Source: Candidatus Muiribacterium halophilum (GTDB lineage: Bacteria; Muiribacteriota; Muiribacteriia; Muiribacteriales; Muiribacteriaceae). From it: 64,000 bases of DNA. Location: positions 11,688 through 75,687 of the forward strand of contig JALOAD010000010.1 of NCBI GenBank assembly GCA_023228995.1, in the 5' to 3' direction. A model generated the notes under the pieces. It was not told the DNA's origin and did not search any database. It saw only the letters and a list, made by a program, of their open reading frames with translations. Made by a program: the position numbers and the translations under genes. Shown in pieces: positions 12,450-43,372 of this stretch (position 1 is the first letter of the stretch; each line of letters opens with the position of its first letter).

Positions 12450-12614
12450 ATATTCCTCCGCATTTATTACTTTCCTTAATTATAAGGAGTAATTTATACA
12501 TTGGTCAAGTGATTTTTTTTATTGATTTTAAAATTTCTATTATGTAATATAAAAGTTTAGAGTTTAATGTTGTTTATAGGTTTTATAAATTTTAATTTAT
12601 TATGGGGATATACA

Positions 12615-14393
12615 ATGAAAAGAACAGAATATTGTGGCAGGATAAACAAAGATAATATAGATGAACAAGTTGTTCTTAAAGGCTGGGTTCATAGAAGAAG
12701 AGATCTTGGAAATCTTATTTTTATACAGTTAAGAGATCGTGAAGGAATAATACAACTTGTTTTTGATCCTGAAAAATGTTCAAAAGAAGTTATGGAATGT
12801 GCAAAATTATTAAGAAGTGAATTTGTAATTGAAGTTTTGGGTAAAGTAATTGCAAGAACTATAGAAAATATTAATCCTGAAATGAGTACTGGGGAATTTG
12901 AAGTATTGGCTGAAAATCTTGAAATATTAAATTCTTCAGAATTAATTCCATTTCATATTGATGATAATGTAAATGTTTCTGAAAATTTAAGACTAAAATA
13001 TAGATATTTGGATTTAAGACGGGATTTTATGAAAGATACAATATGGTTTAGATATAAAGTTCTTGATTGTATAAGAAAATTTATGGGTGAAAAAGAGTTT
13101 ATTGAAATTGAAACTCCATTTTTAATAAAATCAACACCTGAAGGTGCTAGAGATTTTGTTGTTCCTTCAAGAATGCATACTGGTAAATTTTATGCACTTC
13201 CTCAATCTCCACAGCTTTTTAAACAGCTTCTTATGGTTGCAGCATTTGATAAGTATTTTCAAATTGCAAGATGTTTTAGAGATGAAGATGCTCGAGCTGA
13301 TAGACAAACTGATTTTACTCAGCTTGATATTGAAATGAGTTTTGTATCTCAGGATGAAATATTTACATTGATGGAAGATTTATTTAAAAAAGTTTTTAAA
13401 GAAACAATGAATATTGATATAAAAACTCCTTTTGATAGGATAGATTATGATATATCTATGGATAAATATGGTTCTGACAAGCCTGAAAGAAGATATAATA
13501 TGTTTCTTAATGATATTACCAGTCTTTTTGAAAAAAGTGAATTTAAGGTTTTTAAAGAAAATATAGAAAATGGTGGAGTTATAAAAGCTATTGTACTTAA
13601 AGGGAAAAGTACGGATATATCCAGGAAAAAAGTTGGAGAATATGAAGAATTTGTAAAAAAATTCAAAGCAAAAGGGCTTGCTTTTGTTAAGTATGAAAAC
13701 AATTCTTTTAGTGGTGGAATAGCTAAGTTTGTTGAACCTATAAAACAAAAATTTATAGAAATGCTTAATCTTGAGGATAAAGATATTGTGTTTTTTGGAA
13801 GCGATTCTAAAAAAATAGTAAACAATGTTCTTGGTAATTTAAGACTTAAACTTATTAAAGAATTTGATTTAATTGAAGATAAATCGGTTTTTGATTTTTG
13901 TTGGGTTACAAGATTTCCTCTTTTTGAAAAAGATGATAATGGAAATTGGATTGCTATGCATCATCTTTTTAGTATGCCAACACATGATACTGTTGAATTT
14001 GTAGATACAGATCCTGGTAAAGTATATGGTCAACTTTATGACCTTGTTATAAATGGCAATGAAGCTGCAAGCGGAAGTATTAGAATACATAATGCGAAAT
14101 TACAGAAAAAAATAATTGGTATTACTGGAATGAGTGAAAAAGAAATGGAACAGAAATTTGGATTTCTTTTGGAAGCATTTAAATATGGAGCTCCGCCTCA
14201 TGGTGGAATTGCTCCCGGTATAGATAGACTTATTATGATTATGAAAGGGCTTGATAATATTAAAGATGTTATAGCTTTTCCTAAAACAAATAATCAGCTT
14301 TGTCTTCTTACGGGTGCTCCAGATTTTTTATCCATAGAGCAGTTGAATGAGATCGGAATAAAAATGGAGGAAAAAAATAATGGACAAGAATGA
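12615..14393 (+). CDS. aspS: Aspartate--tRNA ligase
   Basis: Class II aaRS motifs (FQIARCFRDEDARADRQ, GGIAPGIDRLIM); N-terminal OB fold; start MKRTEYCG at 12615. Confidence 0.95.
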   Translation: MKRTEYCGRINKDNIDEQVVLKGWVHRRRDLGNLIFIQLRDREGIIQLVFDPEKCSKEVMECAKLLRSEFVIEVLGKVIARTIENINPEMSTGEFEVLAENLEILNSSELIPFHIDDNVNVSENLRLKYRYLDLRRDFMKDTIWFRYKVLDCIRKFMGEKEFIEIETPFLIKSTPEGARDFVVPSRMHTGKFYALPQSPQLFKQLLMVAAFDKYFQIARCFRDEDARADRQTDFTQLDIEMSFVSQDEIFTLMEDLFKKVFKETMNIDIKTPFDRIDYDISMDKYGSDKPERRYNMFLNDITSLFEKSEFKVFKENIENGGVIKAIVLKGKSTDISRKKVGEYEEFVKKFKAKGLAFVKYENNSFSGGIAKFVEPIKQKFIEMLNLEDKDIVFFGSDSKKIVNNVLGNLRLKLIKEFDLIEDKSVFDFCWVTRFPLFEKDDNGNWIAMHHLFSMPTHDTVEFVDTDPGKVYGQLYDLVINGNEAASGSIRIHNAKLQKKIIGITGMSEKEMEQKFGFLLEAFKYGAPPHGGIAPGIDRLIMIMKGLDNIKDVIAFPKTNNQLCLLTGAPDFLSIEQLNEIGIKMEEKNNGQE

Positions 14394-15045
14394 AATCGCT
14401 GATATTGTTAGAAGTGTTGTTGGTGAATACAGGGGAGATGAAAATGAAAAATACAATAATAATAATAAAAAAGTTTCTTTAAATTCTTTTCCTGTATCTG
14501 TTTCAAACAGACATATTCATATTTGTAAATCTGATTTAGAATGTATTTTTGGAAAAGGATATGAATTAAAAAGGATGAAAGAGCTTTCTCAGCCTGGCCA
14601 ATTTGCATGTGAAGAAAAAGTTATTATTGTTGGACCTAAAGGAAGTATTGAAAATGTTAGAATACTTGGACCTGAAAGAAAAGAAACTCAGGTAGAAATA
14701 AGTGTTACTGATACTTTCAAATTAGGAATTCCTGTTTTTGTAAGAGATTCTGGAGATCTTTCAGGAACTCCTGGTCTTACAGTATGCGGCCCTAAAGGCA
14801 GTGTTTATATTGAAAAAGGTGCAATAGTAGCTAAAAGACATATACATTTTTCTGAAAATGATGCAAAAAAATTTAATGTTAAAGATAAAGAAAAAGTTAA
14901 TGTTTTAATAGAAGGCGAAAAAGGCGGAATTTTCTCTGATGTTCTTGTTAGAGTATCAAACTCATACGCACTTGATATGCATATTGATACAGATGAAGGA
15001 AATGCTTTTGGAATAGGGAGAAATACTAAAGGTCAGATTAGTTAA
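14380..15045 (+). CDS. pduL: Phosphate acyltransferase PduL/EutD-like (PTAC) with N-terminal encapsulation-peptide-like helix
   Basis: Duplicated PduL half-domains (VSNRHIHI... and AKRHIHFSEND); N-terminal amphipathic NEIADIVRSVVGEY; overlaps aspS stop by 14 nt. Confidence 0.85.
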   Translation: MDKNEIADIVRSVVGEYRGDENEKYNNNNKKVSLNSFPVSVSNRHIHICKSDLECIFGKGYELKRMKELSQPGQFACEEKVIIVGPKGSIENVRILGPERKETQVEISVTDTFKLGIPVFVRDSGDLSGTPGLTVCGPKGSVYIEKGAIVAKRHIHFSENDAKKFNVKDKEKVNVLIEGEKGGIFSDVLVRVSNSYALDMHIDTDEGNAFGIGRNTKGQIS

Positions 15046-15163
15046 AAAATAATATAAATCAAGTTTAATTGAAAAAACTGAATTTTTGTTTTAAACTTTA
15101 AAAAGTGAAAAAATTATAGTTCTTTTTTTAATTTAGTAAAAAACATATTGTGGAGGATTTATA

Positions 15164-15445
15164 ATGAACAATGCTTTAGGTATGATTGAAACTAAAGGTT
15201 TGGTTGCAATGATTGATGCTGCTGACGCTATGGTTAAAGCAGCTAATGTAAAACTTGTAGGATATGAAAAAATTGGTGGTGGTTATGTGACAGCTCTTGT
15301 AAGAGGAGATGTTGCTGCTGTTAAAGCTGCTACAGAAGCTGGAGCTCAGGCTGCTTCAAAAATCGGTGAACTTGTATCAGTACATGTAATCCCAAGACCA
15401 CATGAAAATCTCGAAGATATTCTTCCTATTGGAAAAGCTGAATAA
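15164..15445 (+). CDS. BMC-H hexameric shell protein (PduA/EutM type)
   Basis: Canonical BMC domain [53 protein letters not shown]. Confidence 0.95.
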
Positions 15446-15449
15446 TTAG

Positions 15450-15722
15450 ATGATTTTAGGAAAAGTTATAGGGACAATTGTCTCTACTAAAAAAGACGAG
15501 AGACTTGTTGGGTTTAAACTTCTTGTTGTAAGAGAATATGATGTTAAAATGAATCCGACAAGTTCTACTGTCGTTGCAGTAGATACAGTGGGTGCAGGTT
15601 TTGATGAGTTAGTTCTAGTGGTCAGCGGTTCATCTGCTAGACAAACTGCTAAGACTGATAAAAAACCTGTTGATGCTGCAATTGTAGGAATTGTCGATTC
15701 TGTAAGTCTTAAAGAGGAGTAA
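15450..15722 (+). CDS. BMC-P pentameric vertex protein (EutN/PduN/CcmL family), copy 1
   Basis: MILGKVIGTIVSTKKDERLVGFKLLVV ... AVDTVGAG motif. Confidence 0.9.
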   Translation: MILGKVIGTIVSTKKDERLVGFKLLVVREYDVKMNPTSSTVVAVDTVGAGFDELVLVVSGSSARQTAKTDKKPVDAAIVGIVDSVSLKEE

Positions 15723-15725
15723 AGT

Positions 15726-17150
15726 ATGAGTCTTGATCATAATGAAATAAAAAATATTGTTGAAGAAATAGTAAAAAAAATTGCTGTTGATAATTATGCG
15801 ACAAAATCCGCATCAACTGGATTAAATACTGGAAAGGTTCTCGGAAAAGGTATTTTTTCAAATATGGAAGATGCTGTTAATGCTGCATATTATGCTCAAA
15901 AAGATTTAATAAAATTAAGTGTTGAAAAAAGAAAAGAGATAATTACAGAAATACGTAAGATAATGCTTGAGAATGCAGAAAAATTATCTGTAGAAGCAAT
16001 TAAAGAAACTGGTATAGGTAGAGTGAAAGATAGGCTTTTAAAAACACTTCTTTCAATAAATAAAACTCCTGGAGTAGAAGATATACAATCGAAAGTTTAT
16101 ACTGGTGATAAAGGTATGACGCTTGAAGAGTATGCTCCTTATGGACTTATTGGAGCAATTACACCGACTACTAATCCAGTAGAATCTATAATTAATAATT
16201 CAATAAGTATGATATCCGCTGGAAACTCTGTTGTATTCAATACACATCCAAGAGCTAAAAATGTTTCAAGAAAGACAATTGAATTAATAAATGAAGCGAT
16301 TATAAGTGTTGGTGGACCAAATAATACAGTAACAACAGTTGCAGAACCAACTATAGAAACTGGGACTTTTATGATGAAACATCCTAAGGTTAAACTTATT
16401 ACTGTAACTGGTGGACCTGGAGTTGTAAAAGCTGCTTTTGCATGTGGTAAAAAAGTAATTGCAGCAGGACCCGGAAATCCTCCTGTTGTTGTTGATGAAA
16501 CTGCTGATATAAAACAGGCAGCTAAAGATATTGTTGATGGAGCTTCATTTGATAATAATGTTTTATGTATTGCAGAAAAAGAAATTATTGCTGTTAAAGA
16601 AATTTATAGAGAATTAATTGATGAAATGCAAAAACATGGTGCTGTGCTTGTAAGTTCAGATGTAGTTGCAAAATTAGCTCAAGTTGCTTTATTGCCTGAT
16701 GGCAGAGTTAATTCTGCCCTTGTTGGCAAAGATGCAAAATTTATACTTTCTCAGATTGATATGCATGTTGGCGATGATATTAGACTTATAATGTGCGAGA
16801 CAGATAGAAATCATCCTTTTGCAGTAGAAGAACTTCTAATGCCTATAATTCCTGTTATAAGGGCTGATAATGTTGATGAAGCAATTGAAATGGCTTATGA
16901 GCTTGAACATAATTTTTTCCATACTGCTATGATGCATTCAAAAAATGTTGAAAATCTTCATAAAATGGCGAGAAAATCTAATGTTTCAATATTTGTAAAA
17001 AATGCACCTTCTTATGCTGGTCTTGGCTTTAATGGAGAAGGAGTAACTACATTTACTATAGCTTCTCCAACTGGTGAAGGTATTACAACTGCTAAAACTT
17101 TTACAAGAATGAGAAGATGTGTTCTGGCTGGATATTTTAGAATTGTCTGA
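15726..17150 (+). CDS. CoA-acylating aldehyde dehydrogenase (EutE/PduP-like) with N-terminal encapsulation-peptide-like helix
   Basis: ALDH fold about 470 aa with a catalytic Cys region (NVLCIAEKE); N-terminal amphipathic EIKNIVEEIVKKI. Confidence 0.88.
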   Translation: MSLDHNEIKNIVEEIVKKIAVDNYATKSASTGLNTGKVLGKGIFSNMEDAVNAAYYAQKDLIKLSVEKRKEIITEIRKIMLENAEKLSVEAIKETGIGRVKDRLLKTLLSINKTPGVEDIQSKVYTGDKGMTLEEYAPYGLIGAITPTTNPVESIINNSISMISAGNSVVFNTHPRAKNVSRKTIELINEAIISVGGPNNTVTTVAEPTIETGTFMMKHPKVKLITVTGGPGVVKAAFACGKKVIAAGPGNPPVVVDETADIKQAAKDIVDGASFDNNVLCIAEKEIIAVKEIYRELIDEMQKHGAVLVSSDVVAKLAQVALLPDGRVNSALVGKDAKFILSQIDMHVGDDIRLIMCETDRNHPFAVEELLMPIIPVIRADNVDEAIEMAYELEHNFFHTAMMHSKNVENLHKMARKSNVSIFVKNAPSYAGLGFNGEGVTTFTIASPTGEGITTAKTFTRMRRCVLAGYFRIV

Positions 17151-17161
17151 GGTGTTTTTTA

Positions 17162-18475
17162 ATGATTGATAAAATAGAAAAAGCCGGTATTTCCGGAGCT
17201 GGTGGAGCTGGATTTCCTACTTTTTTTAAATTGGGAGCAAAAGCTGAATATTATATTATAAATGCAGCTGAATGTGAACCATTACTTGAATCTGACAGAA
17301 ATATAATGCTTCGTAATGCTGAAAAAATAATATCAGGTATTAAAAAAGTAAAAAAAATAATTGATTTTAAAAAAGCATATATTGGAATTAAACAAAAAAA
17401 TACTGATTGTGGTGAATTGTTAAAGAAATTTATTGATGTTGATTATATTGAAGTGAAAATTCTTAAAAATATTTATCCTTCCGGTGATGAACAGGTAATG
17501 ATATATGAAATACTTGGTAAAATTGTTCCTGAAGGTGGCATACCACTTAATATTGGTGTAATTGTAAATAATGTTGAAACTGTATATAGGATTGAAAAAG
17601 CAATTTCCGAAAATGAGGTTTTTAATAAAAGATATGTTACTGTAAATGGTGAAATAGAAAAACCTTGTGTTATGGAATTACCTTTAGGTATAAGTTTTTC
17701 AGATATTCTTGAATTTGCTGGCAAAAAAAAAGGTATTAATTATATCGCTATTGACGGCGGTCCTATGATGGGAAAAATTACTGATATAAAAGATGGTGTC
17801 GTCAAAAAAACTACAAGTGGTATTTTATTTCTTTCAGAAAATCATGAACTTATATTAAGAAAAACTCAGTCTATAAAAAATATATTTGCACAGGCACAGG
17901 CAAGTTGTTGTAATTGTATGACATGTACAGAATTGTGTTCAAGATATCTTATAGGTCATAGAATGGAACCGCATAAAATAATGAGAGCTTTGTGTTCTCA
18001 GAATTTTGATGAAAAGATTTTTGAATATGCTACTTTATGTAGTGAATGTAATATATGTGAGCTTTATGCTTGTCCAATAAATCTTTCTCCAAAGACTGTA
18101 AATCAGTTTCTTAAAGAAAAATTCAGAAAAGAAGGCAAAAAAATAAATATAAAAAAAGATAGTTATGAAGCTCCTGAAGAAAGAAGTGGAAGACAAATTC
18201 CTTCAGATAGAATTATAAACAGACTTGATATAAAAAAATATTATAAAAAACTTGAGTTTAAAGATGAAATTCCTGAATTTACCAAGGTTTTTTTAAAACT
18301 TTCTCAACATATAGGTGCTCCATCTAAACCTATTGTAAGTGTTGGTCAGAATGTTAAAAAAGGTGATATTATAGCAGAGAAAAACGGTAATTTATCAATG
18401 CCTCTACATTCAAGTGTTGATGGCAAGGTAGTGGAAGTTGGTTCTGATACTATAATAATAGAGGTTTCAATATGA
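17162..18475 (+). CDS. PduS/RnfC-like Fe-S flavoprotein
   Basis: RnfC-type N-terminus (GISGAGGAGFPTFFKL, INAAECEP); two Cys clusters (CCNCMTCTELC, CSECNICELYACP); C-terminal barrel-sandwich-like domain. Confidence 0.8.
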   Translation: MIDKIEKAGISGAGGAGFPTFFKLGAKAEYYIINAAECEPLLESDRNIMLRNAEKIISGIKKVKKIIDFKKAYIGIKQKNTDCGELLKKFIDVDYIEVKILKNIYPSGDEQVMIYEILGKIVPEGGIPLNIGVIVNNVETVYRIEKAISENEVFNKRYVTVNGEIEKPCVMELPLGISFSDILEFAGKKKGINYIAIDGGPMMGKITDIKDGVVKKTTSGILFLSENHELILRKTQSIKNIFAQAQASCCNCMTCTELCSRYLIGHRMEPHKIMRALCSQNFDEKIFEYATLCSECNICELYACPINLSPKTVNQFLKEKFRKEGKKINIKKDSYEAPEERSGRQIPSDRIINRLDIKKYYKKLEFKDEIPEFTKVFLKLSQHIGAPSKPIVSVGQNVKKGDIIAEKNGNLSMPLHSSVDGKVVEVGSDTIIIEVSI

Positions 18476-19017
18476 ATTGTTTAGGTATGCTTGAATATAA
18501 AAGTGTTTCAGCCGGAATTAAAAGCTGTGATACTGTTTTAAAAGCTGCTAATGTAAAATTATTATACAGTATGCCTGTATGTGCTGGAAAATATATTATA
18601 ATTGTAAGAGGAGATACTGGAGCTGTATATGCTGCAATTGATGCAGGTAAACAGGTTTCTGTATTTAATCTTGTAGATTCAATAATAATACCTAATCTTC
18701 ATAAAGATATTTTTCCTGCTTTAACAGCATCAGGTAATGTAGGAAAAATTGAAGCTCTTGGTTCGGTTGAAAGCTATTCTATTGCTGCAACTATAATAGC
18801 TGCTGATATAGCTCTTAAAACTGCTGATATTAGAATGATTGAGATTAGAATAGCAAAAGGACTTGGGGGAAAATCCTATTTTAATTTTACAGGGGAAGTT
18901 GGTGCAGTAAGAGAAAGTGAAAAAACTTGTATAAAATATCTTGAGGATAATGGATGGCTTGTATATTCATGTGTAATACCTAATCCACATCCTTCACTTG
19001 CGGAGAAATTGTATTGA
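18472..19017 (+). CDS. BMC-T tandem-domain shell protein (PduT-like)
   Basis: Two BMC domains in 181 aa; Cys at the pore-loop position (SMPVCAGKY) as in PduT. Confidence 0.85.
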   Translation: MNCLGMLEYKSVSAGIKSCDTVLKAANVKLLYSMPVCAGKYIIIVRGDTGAVYAAIDAGKQVSVFNLVDSIIIPNLHKDIFPALTASGNVGKIEALGSVESYSIAATIIAADIALKTADIRMIEIRIAKGLGGKSYFNFTGEVGAVRESEKTCIKYLEDNGWLVYSCVIPNPHPSLAEKLY

Positions 19018-19169
19018 AAAAATTGATATTATATTTTTTTCTATTTATCATTGGATTGATTTTATTATATTTTGTGGATGCAAAAGCAGAGAATATTTTT
19101 GGAATAATTGCCCCATTGTTTATTGTTTTTGTGATAATTTTTATTTTTTATGATAATAGAGTTGTCTGA
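19014..19169 (+). CDS. Putative small two-TM membrane protein (51 aa), TTG start overlapping the BMC-T stop
   Basis: TTGA start/stop overlap; GGAG 8 nt upstream; product MKKLILYFFLFIIGLILLYFVDAKAENIFGIIAPLFIVFVIIFIFYDNRVV has two hydrophobic helices. Confidence 0.35.
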   Translation: MKKLILYFFLFIIGLILLYFVDAKAENIFGIIAPLFIVFVIIFIFYDNRVV

Positions 19170-19195
19170 ATTTATACTAACTTAGGGGAACTATA

Positions 19196-20272
19196 ATGGA
19201 CCGAGAAATTATGGGTGAAAAAGAATTAAAAGAAAATAGCGTTAATGAAAACATTGCTCCTCAGGAGAATACTTCAGATACAAATAATAATACACCTAAA
19301 AACAATGGCGAAAAACATGCTCATTATGTATTTAAAATCTCTTTTAATGAAATTCATAATGAATTTAATGGTGCAATGGTACTTATGGGTGATACTCAGG
19401 AAAGTAATTTTTCTTCAATAGATGTTGTTATGGATAAAAGTTTTACTCTTTCTATTGATACAGACTGGAATGCTTATCTTGAATTTATACGAAAAAAAAG
19501 AAAAGATGTTCAGGATAGCGGTTCTAATTTTCTTATATTTATTAGAAAGTTAGAAAGTTATTTTAAAAAATCTATTTCAAATGTAAAAATTGATAAGATA
19601 AACAAAATAATCGTAACTACAGAAGATGATATGCTGAGAAATGTTCTTATTAAGAATATAATTGAATCTGAGCTTTCTTCGCTTATAGGGCATGGATTTG
19701 AGGTTGAAACAATCTTAAAAGATGAAATAAAATATTATTTTAAAGAAAATACTAGTAATTTAGCATCTGAAAACTCAGAAGAATCAAATTCATCAGATCA
19801 GAATTTATCTAAAGAAATTATACTTGATGCAATTCCAATGATTGATCCAAATGAAGGTATTAAAGCAAGTGATATAAAAGTAGGTGATAGAATATTTGTA
19901 AGAATTACTGATGATTCAACTGTTGGAAAACATATAGCAAGATCTATTACAAAAACCGATAATCCCGAAGAAATTCCTGTAAGAACTCCAGTTTTTAGTG
20001 CAAAGAAAAATATTATTTCAAAATTTAGAGCATCTTCAGAGGTAATGGAGTTAATGGTTAAGTTTGATGAGGGTGTTTTTGGAAAGGTTGTTGTTCAAAC
20101 TGAAGTTAGATTAAGATCTAAACTTGATGATGAAAAGGAAATAAAAAAAGAAGATGATATACAAGAATCTGAGTATGATGAAAACGAAAAATCTGATTTT
20201 ATTCCTTATATAATTTTAATTGGTGTTGTTTTTATGATATTATATGGAATAATAACATTTCTGGGGAATTGA
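19196..20272 (+). CDS. Hypothetical acidic protein with a C-terminal transmembrane helix, inside the BMC locus
   Basis: No recognisable domain; Asn/Glu/Ser-rich N-terminus and linker; C-terminal FIPYIILIGVVFMILYGIITFLGN helix. Confidence 0.6.
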   Translation: MDREIMGEKELKENSVNENIAPQENTSDTNNNTPKNNGEKHAHYVFKISFNEIHNEFNGAMVLMGDTQESNFSSIDVVMDKSFTLSIDTDWNAYLEFIRKKRKDVQDSGSNFLIFIRKLESYFKKSISNVKIDKINKIIVTTEDDMLRNVLIKNIIESELSSLIGHGFEVETILKDEIKYYFKENTSNLASENSEESNSSDQNLSKEIILDAIPMIDPNEGIKASDIKVGDRIFVRITDDSTVGKHIARSITKTDNPEEIPVRTPVFSAKKNIISKFRASSEVMELMVKFDEGVFGKVVVQTEVRLRSKLDDEKEIKKEDDIQESEYDENEKSDFIPYIILIGVVFMILYGIITFLGN

Positions 20273-20274
20273 TT

Positions 20275-20964
20275 ATGAAAATTGCTATAGCGTCAGATCA
20301 TGGTGGATTTTTTTTAAAAGATCATTTAATTAAATTTTTAAGAGAAAAACATGAAATTATTGATCTTGGTTGTAAATCAGCTGATGATAAAGTCGATTAT
20401 CCTGATTTTGCTGTAAAGGCAGCAGAAAATGTAAGAGATAAAAAAGTTGATTATTCTATTATGATAGATGGAGCAGGTGTAGGTTCTACAATGGTAGCTA
20501 ACAAAGTTCAGAATGTTAGGGCTGCATTATGCAATGATCTTTATTGTGCTAATAATTCTAAAGAGCATAATAATGCAAATATGCTAATAATGGGTTCAAT
20601 GGTAGTTGGTTTAGGTTTAGCAGAAAAAATAGTTAATACTTTTTTAGAAGTTGAATTTGCTGGCGGAAGGCATGAAGCTAGGGTTGAAAAAATAAATTTG
20701 CTTGATAAAGTCAGGAGTATGTTTATGAATAATGATAATATTAAAGAAATGATTAAGGATATTGTTGTGAAAGTATTAAAAATGGATGTGAATTCTAATT
20801 TAAAAATAAATAATGATGATTTACCTGAATTTAGTGAAAAAGTACTTACAGAAGAATATCTTAAAAAAAATAATATAAAAAAAATCAGAATATCTTCAAA
20901 AACAATAATACTTCCTCTGGCAAATGATTATATTCTTGCTAATAAAGTCGAAGTTATAAGATGA
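20275..20964 (+). CDS. rpiB: Ribose-5-phosphate isomerase B with a C-terminal extension of about 85 aa
   Basis: MKIAIASDHGGFFLKDHL ... GGRHEARVEKI RpiB/LacAB core of about 143 aa, then an extension containing amphipathic IKEMIKDIVVKVLKM. Confidence 0.85.
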   Translation: MKIAIASDHGGFFLKDHLIKFLREKHEIIDLGCKSADDKVDYPDFAVKAAENVRDKKVDYSIMIDGAGVGSTMVANKVQNVRAALCNDLYCANNSKEHNNANMLIMGSMVVGLGLAEKIVNTFLEVEFAGGRHEARVEKINLLDKVRSMFMNNDNIKEMIKDIVVKVLKMDVNSNLKINNDDLPEFSEKVLTEEYLKKNNIKKIRISSKTIILPLANDYILANKVEVIR

Positions 20965-21242
20965 ATATTGGAAAAGTTACCGGGAATATAGTATCATCTC
21001 ATAAATATCCTGGGTTTACTGGAACAAAATTAATGCTATTGCAACCTGTTGATTCTATGTATAAAAATGCAGGTAATATAATAATTGCTACAGATAGTGT
21101 AGGAGCAGGAAATGGCGAGTATGTGATTTATATCACAAGTTCAGAAGCTTGTATTCCTTTTGTGGATGTTGTAAAATATATACCGACAGATGCAACAATT
21201 GTTGGTATAATTGATAAAATAGATATAATGCAGGAAAGTTAA
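20961..21242 (+). CDS. BMC-P vertex protein, copy 2
   Basis: MNIGKVTGNIVSSHKYPGFTGTKLMLLQPV ... ATDSVGAG. Confidence 0.88.
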   Translation: MNIGKVTGNIVSSHKYPGFTGTKLMLLQPVDSMYKNAGNIIIATDSVGAGNGEYVIYITSSEACIPFVDVVKYIPTDATIVGIIDKIDIMQES

Positions 21243-21244
21243 TA

Positions 21245-21529
21245 ATGTTTTTAGCAAAAGTTATTGGAAATGTTGTTTCATCGCATAAAAACATTGAGCT
21301 TAACGGCAAAAAACTTCTTGTTGTAAAGAAGATTAATCCTGTAGATTATAAGACTTTTGGTAAGGATATAATTGCAATAGATACAGTTGGAGCTGGGAAT
21401 GGTGAGATTGTATTTCTTGTTAAAGAAGGATCAGTTGCACAACAGCTTCTTGATAATAAAAATGTACCAGTACATACAGTTATTCTAGGAATAGTTGATA
21501 AAATTGATATTACGGAGGAGAAAGTATGA
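21245..21529 (+). CDS. BMC-P vertex protein, copy 3
   Basis: [27 protein letters not shown] ... AIDTVGAG. Confidence 0.88.
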
Positions 21530-21792
21530 GGAGAGCTCTGGGAATGGTTGAAACTAAAGGGCTTATTAGCATGATTGAAGCATCAGATGCTATGGTGAAA
21601 GCTGCTAATGTTGAACTTGTAGGATATGAAAAGATAGGAAGTGGTTATGTTACTACAATGGTCAGAGGAGATGTTGGAGCTGTAAAAGCTGCTGTTGAAG
21701 CTGGAGCTACTGCTGCTGCAAGAGTTGGAGAATTGGTTTCTACTCATGTTATTCCTTCTCCACATGAAGATGTTGAAAAAATCCTTGGCTGA
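21526..21792 (+). CDS. BMC-H hexameric shell protein, copy 2
   Basis: [53 protein letters not shown]. Confidence 0.95.
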
Positions 21793-21804
21793 TAAGAGGT
21801 TGTC

Positions 21805-22611
21805 ATGAATAATTATAATGAACTTGTTGAACTTATCACAAGAGAAGTTCTAAATGAAATTGGAAAAAAAGGAGAATCAGTATTTTTAAAGTCTAATATT
21901 AAAAATATTGTAAACTCTGAAATTTCTAATTTAGAAAAAAAAGATAATAATGAAATAGCATCTTATATAGATCATACGCTTTTAAAACCAGAAGCTTCAG
22001 AAGAAGAAATAATTAAAATTTGTAAAGAAGCTATGGAATATAATTTTTGGTCTGTATGTGTTAATCCAACATGGGTGAAGACTGCTTACAGTATTCTTAA
22101 AGATTCTAAAGTAAAAGTTTGTACTGTTGTAGGATTTCCTCTTGGAGCAACACCAGGTGAAGTAAAAGCATTTGAAGCTGATAGAGCTATTAAAGATGGT
22201 GCTTCTGAAGTTGATATGGTTATAAATATTGGTTATATAAAGAGTAAAAAATTTGATGAAGTAAAAGAAGATATAAAAAAAGTAAAACAAGCTTGTGGAA
22301 ATACTTTGCTTAAAGTTATACTTGAAACTTGTCTTTTAACTTCTAATGAAAAGATAAAAGCATGTGAAATCTGTAAATCAGCAGGTGCTGATTATGTGAA
22401 AACATCAACAGGTTTTAGCGTATCAGGAGCAACAGCTGAAGATATTGCACTTATGAGAAGAATTGTAGGTGAAGATATGGGTGTAAAAGCTTCTGGTGGT
22501 GTGAGAGATTCAGAAGGTGCATTAAAAATGATAAAATCAGGTGCAAGCAGAGTTGGTGCTTCAGCATCTATTGCCATAGTAAAAGGACAATATGATCATA
22601 CTGGTTATTGA
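21805..22611 (+). CDS. deoC: Deoxyribose-phosphate aldolase with N-terminal encapsulation-peptide-like helix and linker
   Basis: DERA core from [10 protein letters not shown] with Schiff-base motif [10 protein letters not shown] and KASGGV; first 50 aa form an amphipathic helix ([15 protein letters not shown]) plus an Asn/Ser-rich linker. Confidence 0.9.
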
Positions 22612-22630
22612 TCTTTTGGATAATTAAGTA

Positions 22631-24790
22631 ATGAAATTAACTAAAACTCAGATATTAAGTCTTTTTGATACATTAATATCAAAAACTTTATATCTGGGTT
22701 CTTCTTTTTTTAAGAGAATTGATGAAGCTCAAAGATATAATCAGGATACAATCGAAATTTTACCCTTTCAACTTGAAAATATAAGTCAAATAAAAAACTC
22801 TGATAATTTTAAATGGAGTCTTCTTATAGGTTATCCATTAGGTATTGAAAGTACTAATGCCAAATTATATGAAATTGAGAAAAGCCTTGAATTTGCAATT
22901 GACGAAATAGTACTAATGCCAAATTTATGCTGGCTTAAAGATGGTGAATATGAAAAAATCAGAAAAGAATTAAGTATAATAAAAGAAAAAGTTAGAATTC
23001 CAGTAAAAGTTATACTCAACAATATTCTTATTACTAGAGAAGAATTTGAAAAGCTCGCACAGATTACCGAAAATATGGGAATAATACTTATTCATTCTTA
23101 TGAAAATCTAAATGTAGAAAAAGAAAAGACCAAATCAAAATTTATTAGACAAACAAATTTTAATGGACAACTTGTAAGGGTAAAACTCAGAAATAAAGAA
23201 ATAATAACAGAAAAAATATCTGGATTTGATACTATTTTTAGAGGAAGAAATATAAATTCAGGTTATTTATGGAAAAATAATATATTTCAGTATAATTCTT
23301 TTGATTTTTTAAATAAAATAATAATAACACCAGGTACTTTAGCTGGAAGCGGCATTTCAGCCTCGTCTGTTTTATCAGTTGGATTTAAATCTCCTATGAA
23401 TGAGGGAATAAAAAATCTTGAATTAGAGTGTTTGTTTAGTGATAGGCTTATGGCATGCGGTATCAAATCATTAGTTATTGATGAAATTGCTGACGAACTT
23501 TCTATAATATATATTGCAAAAGATAGAATTGAGATAATACCTACTCCTGAATATGAAAAAATGGATATTTCAATTTTGTTTGAAAATATCAGACAAGAGT
23601 ATGGAGATGTTTCTATAATAGGCATTGGACCTTGTGGAGAAGAAAAATTTATATCATCAACAATAGTTGCAACAGATCATGAAGGAAATCCAGCTATAAT
23701 GCCATCCAGAGGTTCTGGTATTGGTGCAATATTTGGTTCTAAAAAAATAAAAGCTGTAATAATAGAAAATATTAAACAAAATAGCTTTTTTTCAGAAAAA
23801 GAAAATAAACTTATAAATTCTTTTGAAGAACATCTTATAGAAAATACAATATCTGGAAGAATGCTTCCAAGACATTCTACAATGGGTTTTTTTGAAGTTA
23901 ATAATATGCTTTCTTGTCTTCCATGCGAAAATTATAGGAAATCTTCGCTTGATAACAGCATTATAAAAAATATAATGGATGATTTTAAATCTAAATTTGA
24001 TTTGACAAGATCAGAAAACAATATTGTTCGTTTTTTTAATAAACAAAAAAATAAATTTAGAAATATTAATTATATTGATTTTGCAGGTCTGGCATTGGTA
24101 AACGGAATATACGATATAGATATTTTTTTAGATTTATATGAGTGGTGTTTTGAAAAAGGTGTTGATCCGATTGAAATCGGAGGAGCTTTTGCAGTTGCAA
24201 ATGAAGCTGGTATAATAACAAGTAATGGATTAAATTCTGATTTTTTGGATAATATTTTTGAAAACGATGATTGGAGAACAAAAGTTATACTTCAAGGTGG
24301 AGCAATTGCATCTAAAACTTTAGGAATAGGAAGAGCTCCTGTAATAAATGGCGAAGTAATGCTTCCTTATGATATAAGATCTATGGTACTTTCGGGTATT
24401 GCTCAAAAAAACGGTATATCAAATGATGAAAGTAATAATTTTTCTCAATCTTATTATTATTCATTTAGAGATATATCTAATATTGAGGATAAATTGGAAG
24501 AAATTAATATTAATATGGAACATCTTAGTACAGCATTGAATGTTCTTGGGCTTTCAAGATATTGTATATTTGCTTTTCTTAAAAATACAAAAATGTTCAA
24601 TCTTGTGATTGATACTATAAATTCGCTTTATAATTCAAAATTATTAAGCGGTGATATACTTAAAATTTCAAGGCAAGTTTTAAAATCAGAACAAAAATTT
24701 AACAATAAATGCGGTTTGTATTATAATTATAATATTCCGTCCTTTTTTAGAGAAGAGCAAAATAGCAAAGGAAATATATTTAAATATTAA
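22631..24790 (+). CDS. Fusion of a degenerate DeoC-like TIM-barrel domain with an aldehyde:ferredoxin oxidoreductase (AOR/GAPOR-family)-like protein lacking cofactor ligands
   Basis: aa 60-190 align to the DeoC of this locus (LLIGYPLGIESTNAKLYEIEKSLEFAIDEIVLM vs [32 protein letters not shown]) but lack KTSTGF; aa about 200-380 match the AOR N-domain (KSPMNEG..., IGIGPCGEEKF..., RGSGIGAIFGSKKIKAVII); C-terminal domains align but the CxxCxxxC cluster ligands are absent. Confidence 0.6.
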   Translation: MKLTKTQILSLFDTLISKTLYLGSSFFKRIDEAQRYNQDTIEILPFQLENISQIKNSDNFKWSLLIGYPLGIESTNAKLYEIEKSLEFAIDEIVLMPNLCWLKDGEYEKIRKELSIIKEKVRIPVKVILNNILITREEFEKLAQITENMGIILIHSYENLNVEKEKTKSKFIRQTNFNGQLVRVKLRNKEIITEKISGFDTIFRGRNINSGYLWKNNIFQYNSFDFLNKIIITPGTLAGSGISASSVLSVGFKSPMNEGIKNLELECLFSDRLMACGIKSLVIDEIADELSIIYIAKDRIEIIPTPEYEKMDISILFENIRQEYGDVSIIGIGPCGEEKFISSTIVATDHEGNPAIMPSRGSGIGAIFGSKKIKAVIIENIKQNSFFSEKENKLINSFEEHLIENTISGRMLPRHSTMGFFEVNNMLSCLPCENYRKSSLDNSIIKNIMDDFKSKFDLTRSENNIVRFFNKQKNKFRNINYIDFAGLALVNGIYDIDIFLDLYEWCFEKGVDPIEIGGAFAVANEAGIITSNGLNSDFLDNIFENDDWRTKVILQGGAIASKTLGIGRAPVINGEVMLPYDIRSMVLSGIAQKNGISNDESNNFSQSYYYSFRDISNIEDKLEEININMEHLSTALNVLGLSRYCIFAFLKNTKMFNLVIDTINSLYNSKLLSGDILKISRQVLKSEQKFNNKCGLYYNYNIPSFFREEQNSKGNIFKY

Positions 24791-24811
24791 AATTTTTTAT
24801 AGGGAGGAGAT

Positions 24812-25978
24812 TTGAAAAGAATTTGTATTGTAGTACTTGATAGTGTTGGGGTTGGTTATCTTCCTGATGCTCATGAATATAATGATTTTGGAGCTAATAC
24901 TCTTTTACATATAGATGAAAATACAAAGATGAATTTACCTAATATGGAAAAACTTGGTCTTGGTAATATTATAGATTTTAAAAATATAAAAAAAGAAGAA
25001 AATCCAACAGCATGCTATGGTAAAATGGCTGAACTTTCAAAAGGTAAAGATACAATTACCGGACATTGGGAAATTGCTGGTATTGTACTTGAAAAACCTT
25101 TTCCAGTTTATGAAAACGGATTTCCAGAAGATATTATTAAAAAATTTGAAAAATTGACTGGAAAAAAAGTTATTGGAAATAAACCCGCAAGTGGTACAGA
25201 AATATTAAAAGAACTTGGAGAAAAACATTTAAGTACAGGTGCTCTTATAGTTTATACATCAGCTGATAGTGTTTTTCAAATTGCAGCACATGAGAGTTTG
25301 ATTCCTGTTGATGAACTTTATGATATTTGCATTAAAGCAAGAAAGCTTCTTACTGGTGAACATAGTGTTGGAAGAGTTATAGCAAGACCTTTTAATGGAA
25401 ATAACAAAGATGATTTTAAAAGAACACAAAATAGAAAAGATTTTCCTTTAAGACCTTATGAAAATATGCTTGAAAAATTAAAAGAAAACGGTCTTGATGT
25501 AATGGCTGTTGGCAAAATAGAAGATATATTTGCTGGTTACGGAATTACTTTATCATCTGGACATAATGATAATAATAAACATGGTGTAGATAATACTATT
25601 AAATTTTTAAAAGAAAAAAATAATGGTTTAATATTTACCAATCTTGTTGATTTTGACATGGTATATGGTCATAGAAATGATTTTAAAGGATATGCAAAAG
25701 CATTGGAAGAATTTGACTCTATGCTTCCAAAATTAATGAATAGTATGAAAGAAGACGATATTTTAATTATAACAGCAGATCATGGATGTGATCCTTTGTT
25801 TCCTGGAACAGATCATACAAGAGAATATGTACCACTTATTGTTTATGGCAAAAATATAAAAAAAGGTGTAAATCTAGGAATTAGAAAAGGATTTAACGAT
25901 ATATCTGCAACTGTATTAGAATATTTTAATATTGAAAAAATTACCGGTGAGTCATTTCTCGGGGAGATAAATGTCTAA
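24812..25978 (+). CDS. deoB: Phosphopentomutase
   Basis: [16 protein letters not shown]-terminus and ITADHGCDP metal-site motif; TTG start 4 nt after GGGAGG. Confidence 0.9.
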
Positions 25979-28088
25979 ATTTGATGAAGTTATCTTTAAA
26001 TTAAATAGCCGAAATATTAAAGAAAGAATTGAAGCAGTTACTGAACTTGGTGATTTAGGTGATCCTAGAGGTGTTGAATATCTTATAAATAATCTTCCTG
26101 AACTTCATTCAGAATTGAGATTAAATATAATAAGAGCATTAAAAAAAATAAAAGATCCGTCAGCAAGTGGTCCACTTATAGTAGTTTATGATGAAACTCC
26201 TTCTCAGATAATAAGGCATGAGATAATAAATGCATTGCTTGCAATATGTGATGATCATTCTATAAACAAACTTATGCAGATTGTAAATGATATTACAGAA
26301 GAAATATATCTTCGTGTAACTATACTTAAAGAAATAACAAAATTTAGATTAAAAGATTCTTCTGATATAATTAATACTTCGGTTTCTTTGTTAAAAGATA
26401 AAAATGTAGAGATTAGAAAAAATGCTCTTAATCTAATAAATGAGTATAGAGTTAGAAATATTCAAAATTATCTTTTCCCTCTTTTAAAAGAAGATGATAT
26501 AGAAGTTAGAAATAAAGCTCTTGTATATCTTTATAAAACCGAAGGCGAGGTAGTGATTAACAAAGTTATAAATATTCTTTCATCCAATCAAGTTGATAAT
26601 AATGATAAAGCAAAGATAGTTGAGGTGCTTGGAAGTATTAGAGTTGAAAAAGTTGTTAATCTTCTTAAAAAACTAATTATATGTAATATTGAAATAATCA
26701 GAAAAAATGCTATTTTTTCTCTAGTCCATACAGGCGAGAAGGGAATACATGAAGAAATTTCCAAAAGATTAAAAGATAATTCAGCAGAAGTTAGAAAAGC
26801 TGCACTTACAGCACTTACTAATATCAAAGCTTCTATGTATGTAAAAAATATTATTCCATTAATAATGGATAAAGATGAAGGTGTTAGAACAGATGCAGTT
26901 TATGCTCTTAAAAATCTTATCAATACAGTTGATCTTATTAAACTTGAACCTTTGATGAAAAATCCAAATCTAAATGTTGTAAGAGCTGTTCTTGAAGTAT
27001 TTGCAGATAAAAAATATGTACCAGCGGGTTTTTATGATTTAATTAATTCTCTTTATACTTCAGATGATGATATAATAAAAAAAGTTGTAATTCGTATTCT
27101 TGGTATTAATAAAGATAAAAAAGCTTTTGATAAACTACTTTTGCTTTTTTCAGGCGGAAGTGAAAATATAAAAATAGATATACTCTATAATCTCAAAGAG
27201 TTTAAAAGTCTTTACACTGTGCTTATTCCATCACTTTTTGAAAAATATAAAGATGAGGATTCAGAAAAAATCAGAGCTGTTATGACTGATATAATTGCAC
27301 TTGGTAATGATAGAGAAAGTGGTAAAATATTACTTTATATTGTTAAAAACGAGACAGATGGCCGAACCAAAAGTAATGCTGTTGAAGCATTAGAAAATTA
27401 TGTTGATATAATTGATGAGGTAGATTTGGTAAATACAATAATGCCTTGTCTTAAAGATAGTAACAATAGGGTTAAAGCTAATGCTGCTAAAGCATTGTGG
27501 ACACTTGGCGGGCTTAGAATGGTATCAATGCTTGAAGATATGCTTAGAAGCGAGGATAGATGGCAGAGAGCGAGTGCATGCTTTGTGCTTGGTGAGATTG
27601 CAGCTATTCAGGTTGTACCTGTGCTTAAAAGATGTCTTGATGATTCTGAGGATGTTGTAAGAGGAAATGCTGTAAAAGCACTTGCAAAATGTGGTGAATT
27701 TGATGTAGTGCATGATTATATATCAAAATATAATTCAGAAACAGATGTTGTTAGGCAGGCTATTGTTTTTTCATGTAGATTTTTTAATAATGATGAAACT
27801 AAAGAATTTCTTGTTAATATGCTTGAAGAAAAAAATGCTAATATTTCAAAAGAAGCTGCTTATTCAATAAAATTCCTAATAAAAGAAGATATATATCTTG
27901 TTGAGAAAGTATCTTATAAGATTGAAAAACTTGATAAAGAAATTATAAAAATACTTGTTGACCCTATAGGAGACTCTCAGAGTTCATTTGCACTTGAACT
28001 ACTCGAAAGATTAAGTTATTATGATGATATTGAGATATCTTCAAAAGCATCAAATATATTAAAAAAGGTAAATAAAGTTGCATTATAA
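25971..28088 (+). CDS. HEAT-repeat (PBS-lyase HEAT-like) protein, 705 aa, translationally coupled to deoB
   Basis: About 20 repeats of the ...D(p)xxRVRxxAxxALgxig form ([38 protein letters not shown]); ATG overlaps the deoB stop by 8 nt. Confidence 0.75.
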
Positions 28089-42943: not shown

Positions 42944-43372
42944 TTGAAAATAGATATAATAAGTGTAGGAAAACTAAAAAAAGAATTTAAAGATATATTT
43001 GAAATTTATAAATCAAGGGTTGATAAAACCTGTATTTTTAACATTATTGAATTAAAAGAAAAAAATATAAATAAAGAAAGTGATGATATAATAAAATTAA
43101 TTAAAAATGATTTTTTTAAAATTCTTTTAAGTCCACAAGGGAAATTTATAAAATCAAATGATTTTTTTGGCAATTTACTTTCTATTAATACAAAAATACA
43201 ATTTATTATTGGTGGAGCTGAAGGAGTTAATGAAAAATTATTTAAAAATGTTGATGAAGCTATTTCTTTTTCAAATCTTATATTTCCGCATCAGCTTTTT
43301 AGAATAATGCTTATGGAGCAGATATATAGAGGAATTTGTATAATAAATAATCATCCATATCATAAAGTATAA
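42944..43372 (+). CDS. rlmH: 23S rRNA (pseudouridine1915-N3)-methyltransferase RlmH
   Basis: MKIDIISVGKLK ... FIIGGAEGVNE ... FPHQLFRIMLMEQIYRGICIINNHPYHK (SPOUT YbeA family); TTG start with GAGGA RBS. Confidence 0.85.
   Translation: MKIDIISVGKLKKEFKDIFEIYKSRVDKTCIFNIIELKEKNINKESDDIIKLIKNDFFKILLSPQGKFIKSNDFFGNLLSINTKIQFIIGGAEGVNEKLFKNVDEAISFSNLIFPHQLFRIMLMEQIYRGICIINNHPYHKV

Follow-up and report, generated by a model that had tools for sequence, protein, structure and literature searches.

In microcompartments of the SPU (sugar phosphate utilization) type, amphipathic helices on DERA, the aldehyde dehydrogenase (AldDH), PTAC and RPI are largely known already. Every SPU DERA has an amphipathic extension at its N-terminus, the AldDH has an N-terminal peptide in all subtypes but SPU6, all PTACs have an encapsulation peptide, and a peptide is found on RPI too (Dwyer, Sutter and Kerfeld, 2024; PMC11585597). 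RPI, in which the catalytic cysteine is not conserved, was interpreted in the same study as an inactivated packaging factor in complex with DERA; one SPU RPI is almost inactive on ribose 5-phosphate and does form complexes with DERA (Dwyer et al., 2024). A second point of reference is EutQ of Salmonella, where helices H1/H2 (aa 9-41) bind the shell, H3/H4 bind cargo peptides, and residues 1-99 suffice for targeting of GFP (Yang et al., 2025; PMC12487888). Pull-down of EutM with EutQ is abolished by deletion of residues 1-100 (Held et al., 2016; PMC4827028).

The window analysed here, a 64,000-nucleotide stretch of DNA from Candidatus Muiribacterium halophilum, contains an SPU-type bacterial microcompartment locus at 14380-25978, and all four peptide-bearing enzymes lie inside it (Table 1). 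PTAC, AldDH, a PduS-like protein, RpiB and DeoC make up the cargo and accessory genes, while the shell set comprises two BMC-H, three BMC-P (EutN/CcmL-type) and one tandem BMC-T. As is required of an SPU locus, shell genes with a BMC-P triplet among them stand beside the genes of DERA and of an acylating aldehyde dehydrogenase. The presence of PTAC and the PduS-like protein, with no BMC-T(dp) seen at the locus, fits the descriptions of SPU1, SPU4 and SPU7, and the gene order matches that of another Muiribacteriota locus, L006.

Table 1. Shell genes, peptide-bearing enzymes and their extensions in the window.
Feature	Position (nt)	Strand	Evidence
PduL-type phosphotransacylase (PTAC), 221 aa	14380-15045	+	Pfam PTAC, E 2.7e-80, aa 38-212
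PduL N-terminal amphipathic helix NEIADIVRSVVGEY, aa 4-17	14389-14430	+	Position in translation; hydrophobic moment
BMC-H	15164-15445	+	Pfam BMC, E 2.6e-31
BMC-P	15450-15722	+	Pfam EutN_CcmL, E 3.6e-32
Aldehyde dehydrogenase (AldDH), 474 aa	15726-17150	+	Pfam Aldedh, E 1e-36, from ~aa 45
AldDH N-terminal amphipathic helix EIKNIVEEIVKKI, aa 7-19	15744-15782	+	Position in translation; hydrophobic moment
BMC-T, tandem-domain	18472-19017	+	Pfam BMC, two stretches, E 1.8e-41
RpiB-family isomerase, 229 aa from ATG	20275-20964	+	Pfam LacAB_rpiB, E 2.1e-50
RpiB tail part 1, amphipathic helix NIKEMIKDIVVKVLKM, aa 157-172 of TTG-start ORF	20737-20784	+	Position in ORF; AlphaFold2
RpiB tail part 2, variable low-complexity linker DVNSNLKINNDDLPEFS	20785-20835	+	AlphaFold2 pLDDT; homolog comparison
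RpiB tail part 3, conserved 42-aa domain EKVLTEEYLKKNNIKKIRISSKTIILPLANDYILANKVEVIR, EutQ/EutT N-terminal type	20836-20961	+	Profile; AlphaFold2; hhalign
BMC-P	20961-21242	+	ORF/translation; syntenic L006 gene annotated EutN_CcmL
BMC-P	21245-21529	+	ORF/translation; syntenic L006 gene annotated EutN_CcmL
BMC-H	21526-21792	+	ORF/translation; syntenic L006 gene annotated BMC
Deoxyribose-phosphate aldolase (DERA/DeoC), 268 aa	21805-22611	+	NCBIfam deoC, E 3.1e-90, aa 51-259
DERA N-terminal amphipathic helix, 15 aa, aa 5-19	21817-21861	+	Position in translation; conserved motif

A first-pass annotation of this DNA had described helices resembling encapsulation peptides on PduL, AldDH, DeoC and RpiB. 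These helices are indeed present, essentially where it had placed them, and they lie outside the catalytic cores, with PTAC beginning at aa 38, Aldedh at about aa 45 and DeoC at aa 50, and with LacAB_rpiB confined to aa 5-142. We scored amphipathicity as the Eisenberg hydrophobic moment over a 14-residue span, with all 14-mers of the window's 63 putative genes as background. The four peptides fall between the 90th and the 99.7th percentile, as expected for short (about 15-20 aa) amphipathic α-helices, and the RpiB segment is also helical in an AlphaFold2 model. The helices of PduL, AldDH and DeoC measure 13-15 aa, have hydrophobic residues at i, i+3/4, i+7/8 and i+11, and are terminal, with a non-conserved linker leading to the enzyme. 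The PduL helix (moment 0.57, 97th percentile) is separated from the PTAC domain by an N/K-rich linker (aa 18-37), and a Muiribacteriota homolog has EIIEKIVKTVMDEY at the equivalent position. In AldDH, where the linker runs from the helix end to about aa 44, the moment reaches 0.70 (99.7th percentile), the highest N-terminal value among the 63 genes, and the helix follows the pattern of the E. coli EutE N-terminus, DIEQVVKAVLLKM.

Amphipathic N-termini occur elsewhere in the window as well, for example in the genes at 833-2164 and 42944-43372, as would be the case if the helices were chance segments in an A+T-rich, Ile/Lys/Asn-rich proteome. We consider this extremely improbable, because the helices sit outside the catalytic domains, recur at equivalent places in homologs with 50-80% identity and in more distant ones, and in all three N-terminal cases rank among the top five of the 63 genes (AldDH first, DeoC fourth, PduL fifth), for which the chance with three named proteins is roughly 2.5e-4.

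The DERA helix lies in a 49-aa N-terminal extension (nt 21805-21951) ahead of a core that begins at about aa 50. Solved DERAs from the PDB align with DeoC only from its aa 50 onward, to aa 4-6 of their chains, and neither the extension nor the helix motif was found in any of them. A single-sequence model does place a helix at aa 4-21, but its confidence is low (pLDDT 45) and too poor for use. The motif LVExITREVL is kept in aldolases of microcompartment-linked loci from many phyla, and (L/I)(V/I)ExITREVL recurs in DERAs adjoining RPI and microcompartment genes, in lineages that include Muiribacteriota and Anaerolineae. Conservation of ITREVL across phyla suggests that this helix does not just present a generic hydrophobic face but has a specific partner that is itself conserved.

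The RpiB reading frame is also open from a TTG at 20269 (231 aa, the numbering used above for LacAB_rpiB), but the ATG at 20275 is the likely start because database homologs begin MKIAIASD. The core comprises aa 1-146, to which alignment with solved RpiBs is confined. It belongs to the LacAB family and fold, but it lacks the catalytic Cys and the Thr: DGAG stands in place of the CGTG of the C. thermocellum and E. coli enzymes, so that Cys/Thr are replaced by Asp/Ala, and the Asp is invariant in the clade. The Cys of CGTG is established as the catalytic base (Dwyer et al., 2024).

The remaining 83 residues (aa 147-229) form a tail of three parts, namely an amphipathic helix, a disordered linker and a folded domain of about 42 aa. 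In the AlphaFold2 model, calculated with an alignment, the helix spans residues 153-169 of the ATG-start protein with only moderate confidence (pLDDT about 70-79). It runs straight on from the last core helix, and might therefore pack on the core instead of being free. Residues 171-180 are disordered (pLDDT < 50), and residues 183-229 are folded (pLDDT 88-92) into two helices and short strands. All 21 C-terminally extended RpiBs retain helix, variable linker and domain; the helix has the amphipathic pattern in every one (moments 0.46-0.72), and the linker varies from 13 to 53 aa, without sequence conservation. The RpiB peptide had been taken for a plain C-terminal one starting at 20731. A helix is there, but the earlier start takes in two further residues, and although a short segment joins it to the core, it is internal rather than terminal, being followed by the 17-aa linker and the 42-aa domain. 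An interpretation as encapsulation peptides, well supported for PduL, AldDH and DeoC, is thus incomplete for RpiB.

By profile comparison, the tail domain shares homology with EutQ (aa ~2-47) and EutT (aa ~3-46) at their N-termini. A module profile scores 53 bits at the RpiB domain, its sole match in the six-frame translation of the window, and also matches two E. coli proteins at the N-terminus, EutQ over aa 2-38 and EutT over aa 3-46, with E-values of 3e-5 and 3e-4 when the search space is set to 1000 sequences. Comparison of the tail domain with the EutQ/EutT N-termini by hhalign gave a probability of 97.7% and an E-value of 1.3e-12 over 45 columns, and positions 150-205 of NCBIfam TIGR02536 match the domain as well (E 5.7e-5). 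No Pfam model was found for this EutQ/EutT N-terminal region. What the present analysis adds to earlier publications is that the RpiB tail is bipartite and that its second part resembles the shell-docking region of EutQ.

We favour, with a fair degree of confidence, a reading in which PduL, AldDH and DERA carry classical encapsulation peptides, while the RpiB tail is a three-part cassette that makes the protein a shell-cargo adaptor. By analogy with their families, the N-terminal helices of PduL, AldDH and DERA would bundle the cargo into a core and tie that core to the shell. The RpiB helix may join this bundle, and the RpiB domain, by homology with EutQ, would dock on the shell proteins of the locus; in Salmonella, the shell partners of the EutQ/EutT N-terminal (H1/H2) domain are EutM and EutL. 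RpiB would in that case link shell and cargo and assist DERA no less than it would serve as an enzyme. What the analysis shows directly is the set of sequence features with their conservation, the relationship of the domain to EutQ/EutT, and its association with shell genes in genomes; that the locus proteins bind the shell, bundle through their helices and become encapsulated is predicted from these. The homology between RpiB and EutQ spans 45 residues, and a shared fold is no proof of a shared partner.

The RpiB helix is like the other three in pattern and amphipathicity, and RPI extensions consisting of the helix without the domain exist (P0061 and several Anaerolineae loci), so the helix can stand alone. 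All four might accordingly be ordinary encapsulation peptides, with the RpiB domain an unrelated appendage (serving, for example, oligomerisation or regulation) that does not dock on the shell. We judge this unlikely, if worth keeping in mind, since the domain is homologous to the very region of EutQ that binds the shell and is found on several microcompartment cargo enzymes with no relationship to one another. The helix-linker-domain order recurs N-terminally on other RPIs, and the domain is found on TIM, C-terminally on PduL and in standalone proteins of 78-140 aa. Moreover, where RPI is without the domain, a separate protein in the locus often carries it: among 13 Anaerolineae SPU loci, 8 have an RPI whose extension is helix-only, and these 8 also encode a separate protein with domain, linker and helices. 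Shell genes also accompany the domain on 51 of 80 metagenome contigs (64%) selected by its motif, 50 of the 80 being shorter than 5 kb.

The extensions were further expected to be specific to microcompartment loci, which is borne out only in part. It holds for DeoC in so far as its extension is absent from solved DERAs, but for RpiB specificity is not strict in the 10-kb neighbourhoods examined, as the same C-terminal tail occurs on RpiBs more than 10 kb from shell genes. At least seven loci (L001, L002, L007, L008, L009, L011 and L012) have a C-terminally extended RpiB with no shell gene within 10 kb, and a genome scan found no shell gene and no DERA within that distance for 7 of 13 RpiBs bearing the domain. 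Extended RpiBs of CSSED10-310 and other lineages stand in conserved neighbourhoods without microcompartment genes, where one finds among others an RND efflux pump, a cNMP-binding protein, DUF72 and ATP synthase. Such cases would fit a tail unrelated to microcompartments, a lineage-specific extension of a housekeeping-type isomerase located here by chance. This too seems improbable to us, and rather more so than the unrelated-appendage explanation, given the strong enrichment of domain-bearing proteins beside shell genes and the finding that 45 of 48 RpiBs without the extension are in loci lacking microcompartment genes. In addition, the TIM adjoining RpiB at L009 bears the same domain, and at L101-L105 and L115 the neighbouring DERA has the N-terminal helix with no shell gene nearby, both of which suggest satellite loci for cargo. 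For Ignavibacteriae, Gemmatimonadetes and candidate phyla, dispersed 'FRAG' shell loci have been described (PMC8217296).

Compared with known systems, the locus has the same enzyme set as the SPU systems of Dwyer et al. (2024), i.e., DERA, RPI, AldDH and PTAC. Most of the first-pass interpretation is supported but already in the literature; with peptides described on DERA and RPI, the suggestion that both sugar-phosphate enzymes are targeted to the lumen had been published before (PMC11585597). In contrast to the RPI of that study, the extension is C-terminal here, although C-terminal cases may stand in its Supplemental Table S2, and what would be taken for a linker includes a folded domain that is conserved. 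The helices of PduL, AldDH and DeoC resemble the classical peptides of PduP, PduD, PduL, EutC and EutE in length, amphipathic pattern and linker (E. coli EutE starts MNQQDIEQVVKAVLLKM, compared with DHNEIKNIVEEIVKKI here), whereas the sequence of the DERA helix (ITREVL) is conserved between phyla to an unusual degree. EutQ and RpiB share an H1/H2-type domain (EutQ aa 2-47), a flexible linker, amphipathic helices and an attached enzyme domain, which is a cupin in EutQ and RpiB itself in the tail-bearing protein. The order differs, being domain, linker, helices H3/H4 and enzyme in EutQ, and enzyme, helix, linker and domain in RpiB. Furthermore, H3/H4 of EutQ binds the peptides of other cargo, whereas the single RpiB helix itself resembles such a peptide. 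Lastly, the linkers CcmN, CsoS2 and PduB(1-37) have the same proposed role, with one region directed to the shell and another to cargo; the RpiB tail has no sequence relationship to them, and in its case the linking parts belong to the same polypeptide as a degenerate enzyme.

Positions 14380-25978 of the window hold a bacterial microcompartment locus on the forward strand, the genes of which are listed in the table together with those at its borders and related genes in comparison loci. The sugar phosphate utilization (SPU) type of microcompartment is defined by the combination of deoxyribose-phosphate aldolase (DERA, or DeoC), aldehyde dehydrogenase (AldDH) and a triplet of BMC-P genes (PMC4207490, PMC8217296, PMC11585597), and the locus is of this type. 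The nearest homologs of the RpiB encoded in the locus are named Candidatus Muiribacteriota, and one contig from this phylum (L006) is syntenic with the locus gene for gene. At the 5' end, the tRNA synthetase gene extends past the start codon of PduL and leaves no intergenic gap before the locus; in L006 a tRNA synthetase likewise stands directly 5' of the gene for the PduL-type phosphotransacylase (PTAC). At the 3' end, the phosphopentomutase-like gene, whose product would supply deoxyribose 5-phosphate, is followed by a gene for a HEAT-repeat protein, in an order identical to that in L006.

Genes of the microcompartment locus and its borders, and related genes in comparison loci
Gene or product	Source	Position	Strand	Remark
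Aspartyl-tRNA synthetase	window	12567-14393		overruns PduL start codon (14380) by 14 nt
PduL-type PTAC	window	14380-15045	+	
BMC-H	window	15164-15445	+	
BMC-P	window	15450-15722	+	
Aldehyde dehydrogenase	window	15726-17150	+	
PduS/RnfC-like flavoprotein	window	17162-18475	+	
Tandem BMC-T	window	18472-19017	+	
358-aa protein	window	19196-20272	+	without family match
RpiB	window	20269/20275-20964	+	
BMC-P	window	20961-21242	+	
BMC-P	window	21245-21529	+	
BMC-H	window	21526-21792	+	
DeoC (DERA)	window	21805-22611	+	
AFOR-like protein	window	22631-24790	+	719 aa
Phosphopentomutase-like gene	window	24812-25978	+	
HEAT-repeat protein	window	25971-28088	+	705 aa
Counterpart of 358-aa protein	L006	6821-7858		345 aa
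PduL-type PTAC with C-terminal EutQ-type domain	L127	4494-5558		also N-terminal amphipathic helix
PduL-type PTAC with C-terminal EutQ-type domain	L118	52-987		
PduL-type PTAC with C-terminal EutQ-type domain	L150	9260-10141		
RpiB-DERA fusion	L046	6003-7397		shell genes in locus
RpiB-DERA fusion	L072	10001-11344		shell genes in locus
EutQ, E. coli K-12	L010	8303-9004		

Two further proteins of the locus deserve mention. The 358-aa protein encoded between BMC-T and RpiB, for which searches of Pfam and NCBIfam gave no match, is of low complexity in its N-terminal region, and its hydrophobic C-terminal segment, FIPYIILIGVVFMILYGIITFLGN, resembles a membrane anchor; the counterpart of this protein in L006 occupies the same position and weakly matches DUF4899. 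A membrane-anchored protein, for which this is a candidate, would be unusual within a microcompartment locus. The AFOR-like protein encoded directly 3' of DeoC starts with a truncated region resembling DeoC (NCBIfam deoC, aa 29-152, E 1.8e-12), followed by the aldehyde:ferredoxin oxidoreductase domains AFOR_N (aa 180-379) and AFOR_C (aa 398-713), and a targeting helix is absent from it.

The first-pass annotation had described short amphipathic helices, set off from the catalytic core, on four enzymes of the locus. Indeed, we found all four peptides, at aa 4-17 of PduL, aa 7-19 of AldDH, aa 5-19 of DeoC and aa 157-172 of RpiB (nt 20737-20784, counted on the TTG-start ORF), and domain searches and alignment to solved enzymes place each of them outside the catalytic domain. 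The PTAC domain of PduL starts at aa 38 and the Aldedh domain at approximately aa 45, DeoC aligns with solved DERAs only from aa 50, opposite their residues 4-6, and the alignment of RpiB with solved RpiBs is confined to aa 1-146. The peptides follow a common pattern, E-[IL]-x-x-[IL]-[VI]-x-x-[VI]-[VL]-x-x-[IYL], of which DeoC carries a heptad variant. Among the 63 putative genes of the window, their 14-residue hydrophobic moments fall between the 90th and 99.7th percentiles, and by N-terminal moment AldDH ranks first, DeoC fourth and PduL fifth. Because a few other N-termini in the window score equally high, amphipathicity alone is not unique, and the case for the helices rests on their position and conservation. 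All four are kept in the Muiribacteriota homologs, and the helix motif (L/I)(V/I)ExITREVL recurs in DERAs encoded beside RpiB-type isomerase (RPI) and shell genes, both in Muiribacteriota and Anaerolineae and in several lineages from metagenomes, a conservation that exceeds what is usual for a generic targeting helix. For DeoC, AlphaFold2 run on the sequence alone gave a poor model (pLDDT 45), which was discarded as evidence. In Anaerolineae DERAs (L086, L014, L024, L064 and others) we also observed a cysteine-rich stretch between the ITREVL helix and the aldolase core, for example YCHEECADGICIKTCFD, whose spacing, near C-x3-C-x4-C-x3-C, hints that it may bind a metal or cluster; the DeoC of the window is without this stretch.

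The annotation had further proposed that both sugar-phosphate enzymes, DERA and RpiB, are targeted to the lumen. This reading is for the most part correct but no longer new, since Dwyer, Sutter and Kerfeld (2024, PMC11585597) report helices on both enzymes of SPU loci: an N-terminal amphipathic-helix extension on all SPU DERAs, absent from other DERAs, and on the SPU RPI "a typical N-terminal EP" with a linker of approximately 75 residues after it. According to the same study, all SPU PTACs carry encapsulation peptides, as do the SPU AldDHs, N-terminally except in SPU6. The helices as originally described thus add one further locus, from a poorly studied phylum.

A C-terminal RPI extension finds no mention in the main text of Dwyer et al. 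(2024, PMC11585597). The RpiB homologs fall into three classes, with no extension (~149 aa), with an N-terminal extension of 39-106 aa, or with a C-terminal extension of 79-131 aa, and the RpiB of the window belongs to the last of these. In the alignment of this class, the core is followed by an amphipathic helix, a variable linker and a conserved block of ~42 aa with the consensus vLTEedl...G...i.i....IiTPLA.D.......I.i. The helix occupies the same place in all 21 C-extended homologs, with moments of 0.46-0.72, while the linker is non-conserved and 13-53 aa long. In the AlphaFold2 model built from the C-terminal-class alignment (mean pLDDT 88), residues 153-169 are helical (pLDDT ~70-79), residues 171-180 are disordered (pLDDT <50), and residues 183-229 fold into an alpha/beta domain with two helices (pLDDT 88-92). 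An exhaustive HMMER search with the 89-aa tail recovered only two relatives (P0009 and P0007), because the tail is too short and too divergent for single-sequence searching. The order helix, linker, block is also found in N-terminal extensions (P0022, P0026, P0095, P0117; L013, L018, L019, L053, L055, L061), among them those of Chloroflexota proteins like the ones that Dwyer et al. examined, so in many RPIs the published "unstructured linker" holds a domain that is conserved; in others, such as P0061, the extension consists of a helix only.

As for the identity of the block, it is recognized by no Pfam model and no PDB sequence in sequence searches; the sole match, a weak one to the E3-binding domain of E2 acyltransferases, was not relied on. 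A profile of the domain, which in the window matches the RpiB tail only, matches E. coli EutT and EutQ at their very N-termini (aa 3-46 and aa 2-38, respectively), as well as the N-terminal extension of a TIM encoded next to a C-extended RpiB in L009. Profile-profile comparison of the block with the EutQ/EutT N-termini gave 97.7% probability (E 1.3e-12, 45 columns), and the C-terminal 55 positions of NCBIfam TIGR02536 ("eut_hyp") match the block. In the EutQ of Salmonella, the shell is bound by H1/H2 and the cargo peptides by H3/H4, and residues 1-99 are enough to target GFP (Yang et al., 2025, PMC12487888), and the EutQ-EutM pull-down is lost once residues 1-100 are deleted (Held et al., 2016, PMC4827028). 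By homology, the RpiB domain is the counterpart of the shell-binding part of EutQ, and the RpiB element is a new variant, being C-terminal, bipartite and EutQ-related. Separately, residues 6-92 of E. coli K-12 EutQ match positions 2-88 of NF007991 (E 1.6e-9), the NCBIfam model for an EutA variant, so some EutA reactivases seem to carry a whole EutQ-like N-terminal region.

Word-indexed searches with 42-49-aa queries or short module profiles returned only proteins below ~90 aa, many of them frameshift fragments, and their lists are therefore no census of full-length hosts. Hosts were instead found by motif scans of metagenome contigs with an 8-sequence subset, the 26-sequence module alignment being too diverse; the scan, skewed by this subset toward IITPLAR[DE]-type domains, gave 80 loci. 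Shell genes were present in 51 of these, and shell genes or AldDH, PduL or PduS in 57, with 50 of the 80 contigs shorter than 5 kb. The domain is found N-terminally on RPIs, on degenerate RpiB-like proteins, C-terminally on PduL, on ~230-aa proteins made of an N-terminal helix, an unassigned domain and a C-terminal block, and on small proteins of helices, linker and block alone. The PduL-type PTACs (L127, L118, L150) indicate that in other loci the docking domain serves a different cargo enzyme. Apparent AldDH-domain fusions (L151, L157) were rejected as stop-to-stop ORF artefacts in high-GC DNA. We also noted two RpiB-DERA fusions with ~300 aa after the RpiB core, which match the SPU3 chimeras of the literature. 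Among 13 Anaerolineae SPU loci with a helix-only extension on the RPI, 8 encode in addition a protein of 115-140 aa in which the block is followed by a linker rich in Pro and by amphipathic helices at the C-terminus, the architecture of EutQ(1-99). Of the comparative evidence, this complementarity argues most strongly that block and helix may form a functional adaptor unit, fused to RpiB in the window.

The expectation that the extensions are specific to microcompartment loci held only in part. In a scan of species-representative genomes, RpiBs without an extension were mostly away from such loci (shell genes near 3 of 48, DERA only near 0, neither near 45), but C-extended RpiBs also occur remote from shell genes. 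Among 13 domain-bearing RpiBs, shell genes were nearby in 3, DERA only in 3 and neither in 7; for the 19 with an extension of at least 30 aa and no domain match, the counts were 13, 1 and 5. No shell gene lies within 10 kb of the C-extended RpiB in L001, L002, L007, L008, L011 and L012 (CSSED10-310 and two other lineages) or in L009. The TIM adjoining RpiB in L009 bears the same domain, the DERA adjoining RpiB in L101-L105 and L115 bears the N-terminal helix, and shell loci of the dispersed "FRAG" type, which lie apart from enzyme genes, are known from Ignavibacteriae, Gemmatimonadetes and candidate phyla (PMC8217296). Together, these point to putative satellite cargo loci for the shell-remote RpiBs.

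Lastly, residues 63-69 of RpiB read IDGAGVG, as against ICGTGxG in solved RpiBs, so that Asp and Ala stand where the catalytic Cys and Thr would be. All 23 aligned relatives share this Asp, the extension-free 149-aa P0023 and P0027 among them. An SPU6 RPI was found in complex with DERA and had almost no activity on ribose 5-phosphate; a role in core packaging has been suggested as possible for it (Dwyer et al., 2024, PMC11585597). A plausible mechanism would be that PduL, AldDH and DERA are loaded via their N-terminal helices, while RpiB docks on the shell via its EutQ-type domain and its own helix joins the cargo helices, RpiB being the linker between shell and core. The ~45-aa EutQ/EutT-N-type domain occurs on EutQ, EutT, TIGR02536 proteins, PduL, TIM, RPI and standalone proteins. 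It is possible, though we would not yet call it probable, that it is a portable shell-docking module of many microcompartment types, and that in SPU a degenerate RPI or an EutQ(1-99)-like protein is the missing shell-cargo linker. If so, the small protein would act as linker where the RPI is without the module, and cassette-bearing RpiB, TIM and DERA genes far from shells would be cargo of the FRAG microcompartments of Ignavibacteriota, Gemmatimonadota and candidate phyla, which would then process sugar phosphates too. The short profile, for a domain that has no Pfam model, can serve to locate adaptors and cargo genes outside shell loci, and helix plus docking domain would make a candidate two-part tag for synthetic biology, at either protein end. 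The make-up of the RpiB tail suggests a concrete explanation for the puzzling presence of an apparently inactive isomerase, and ties the shell-cargo mechanism described for EutQ in 2025 to one of the most widespread microcompartment types.
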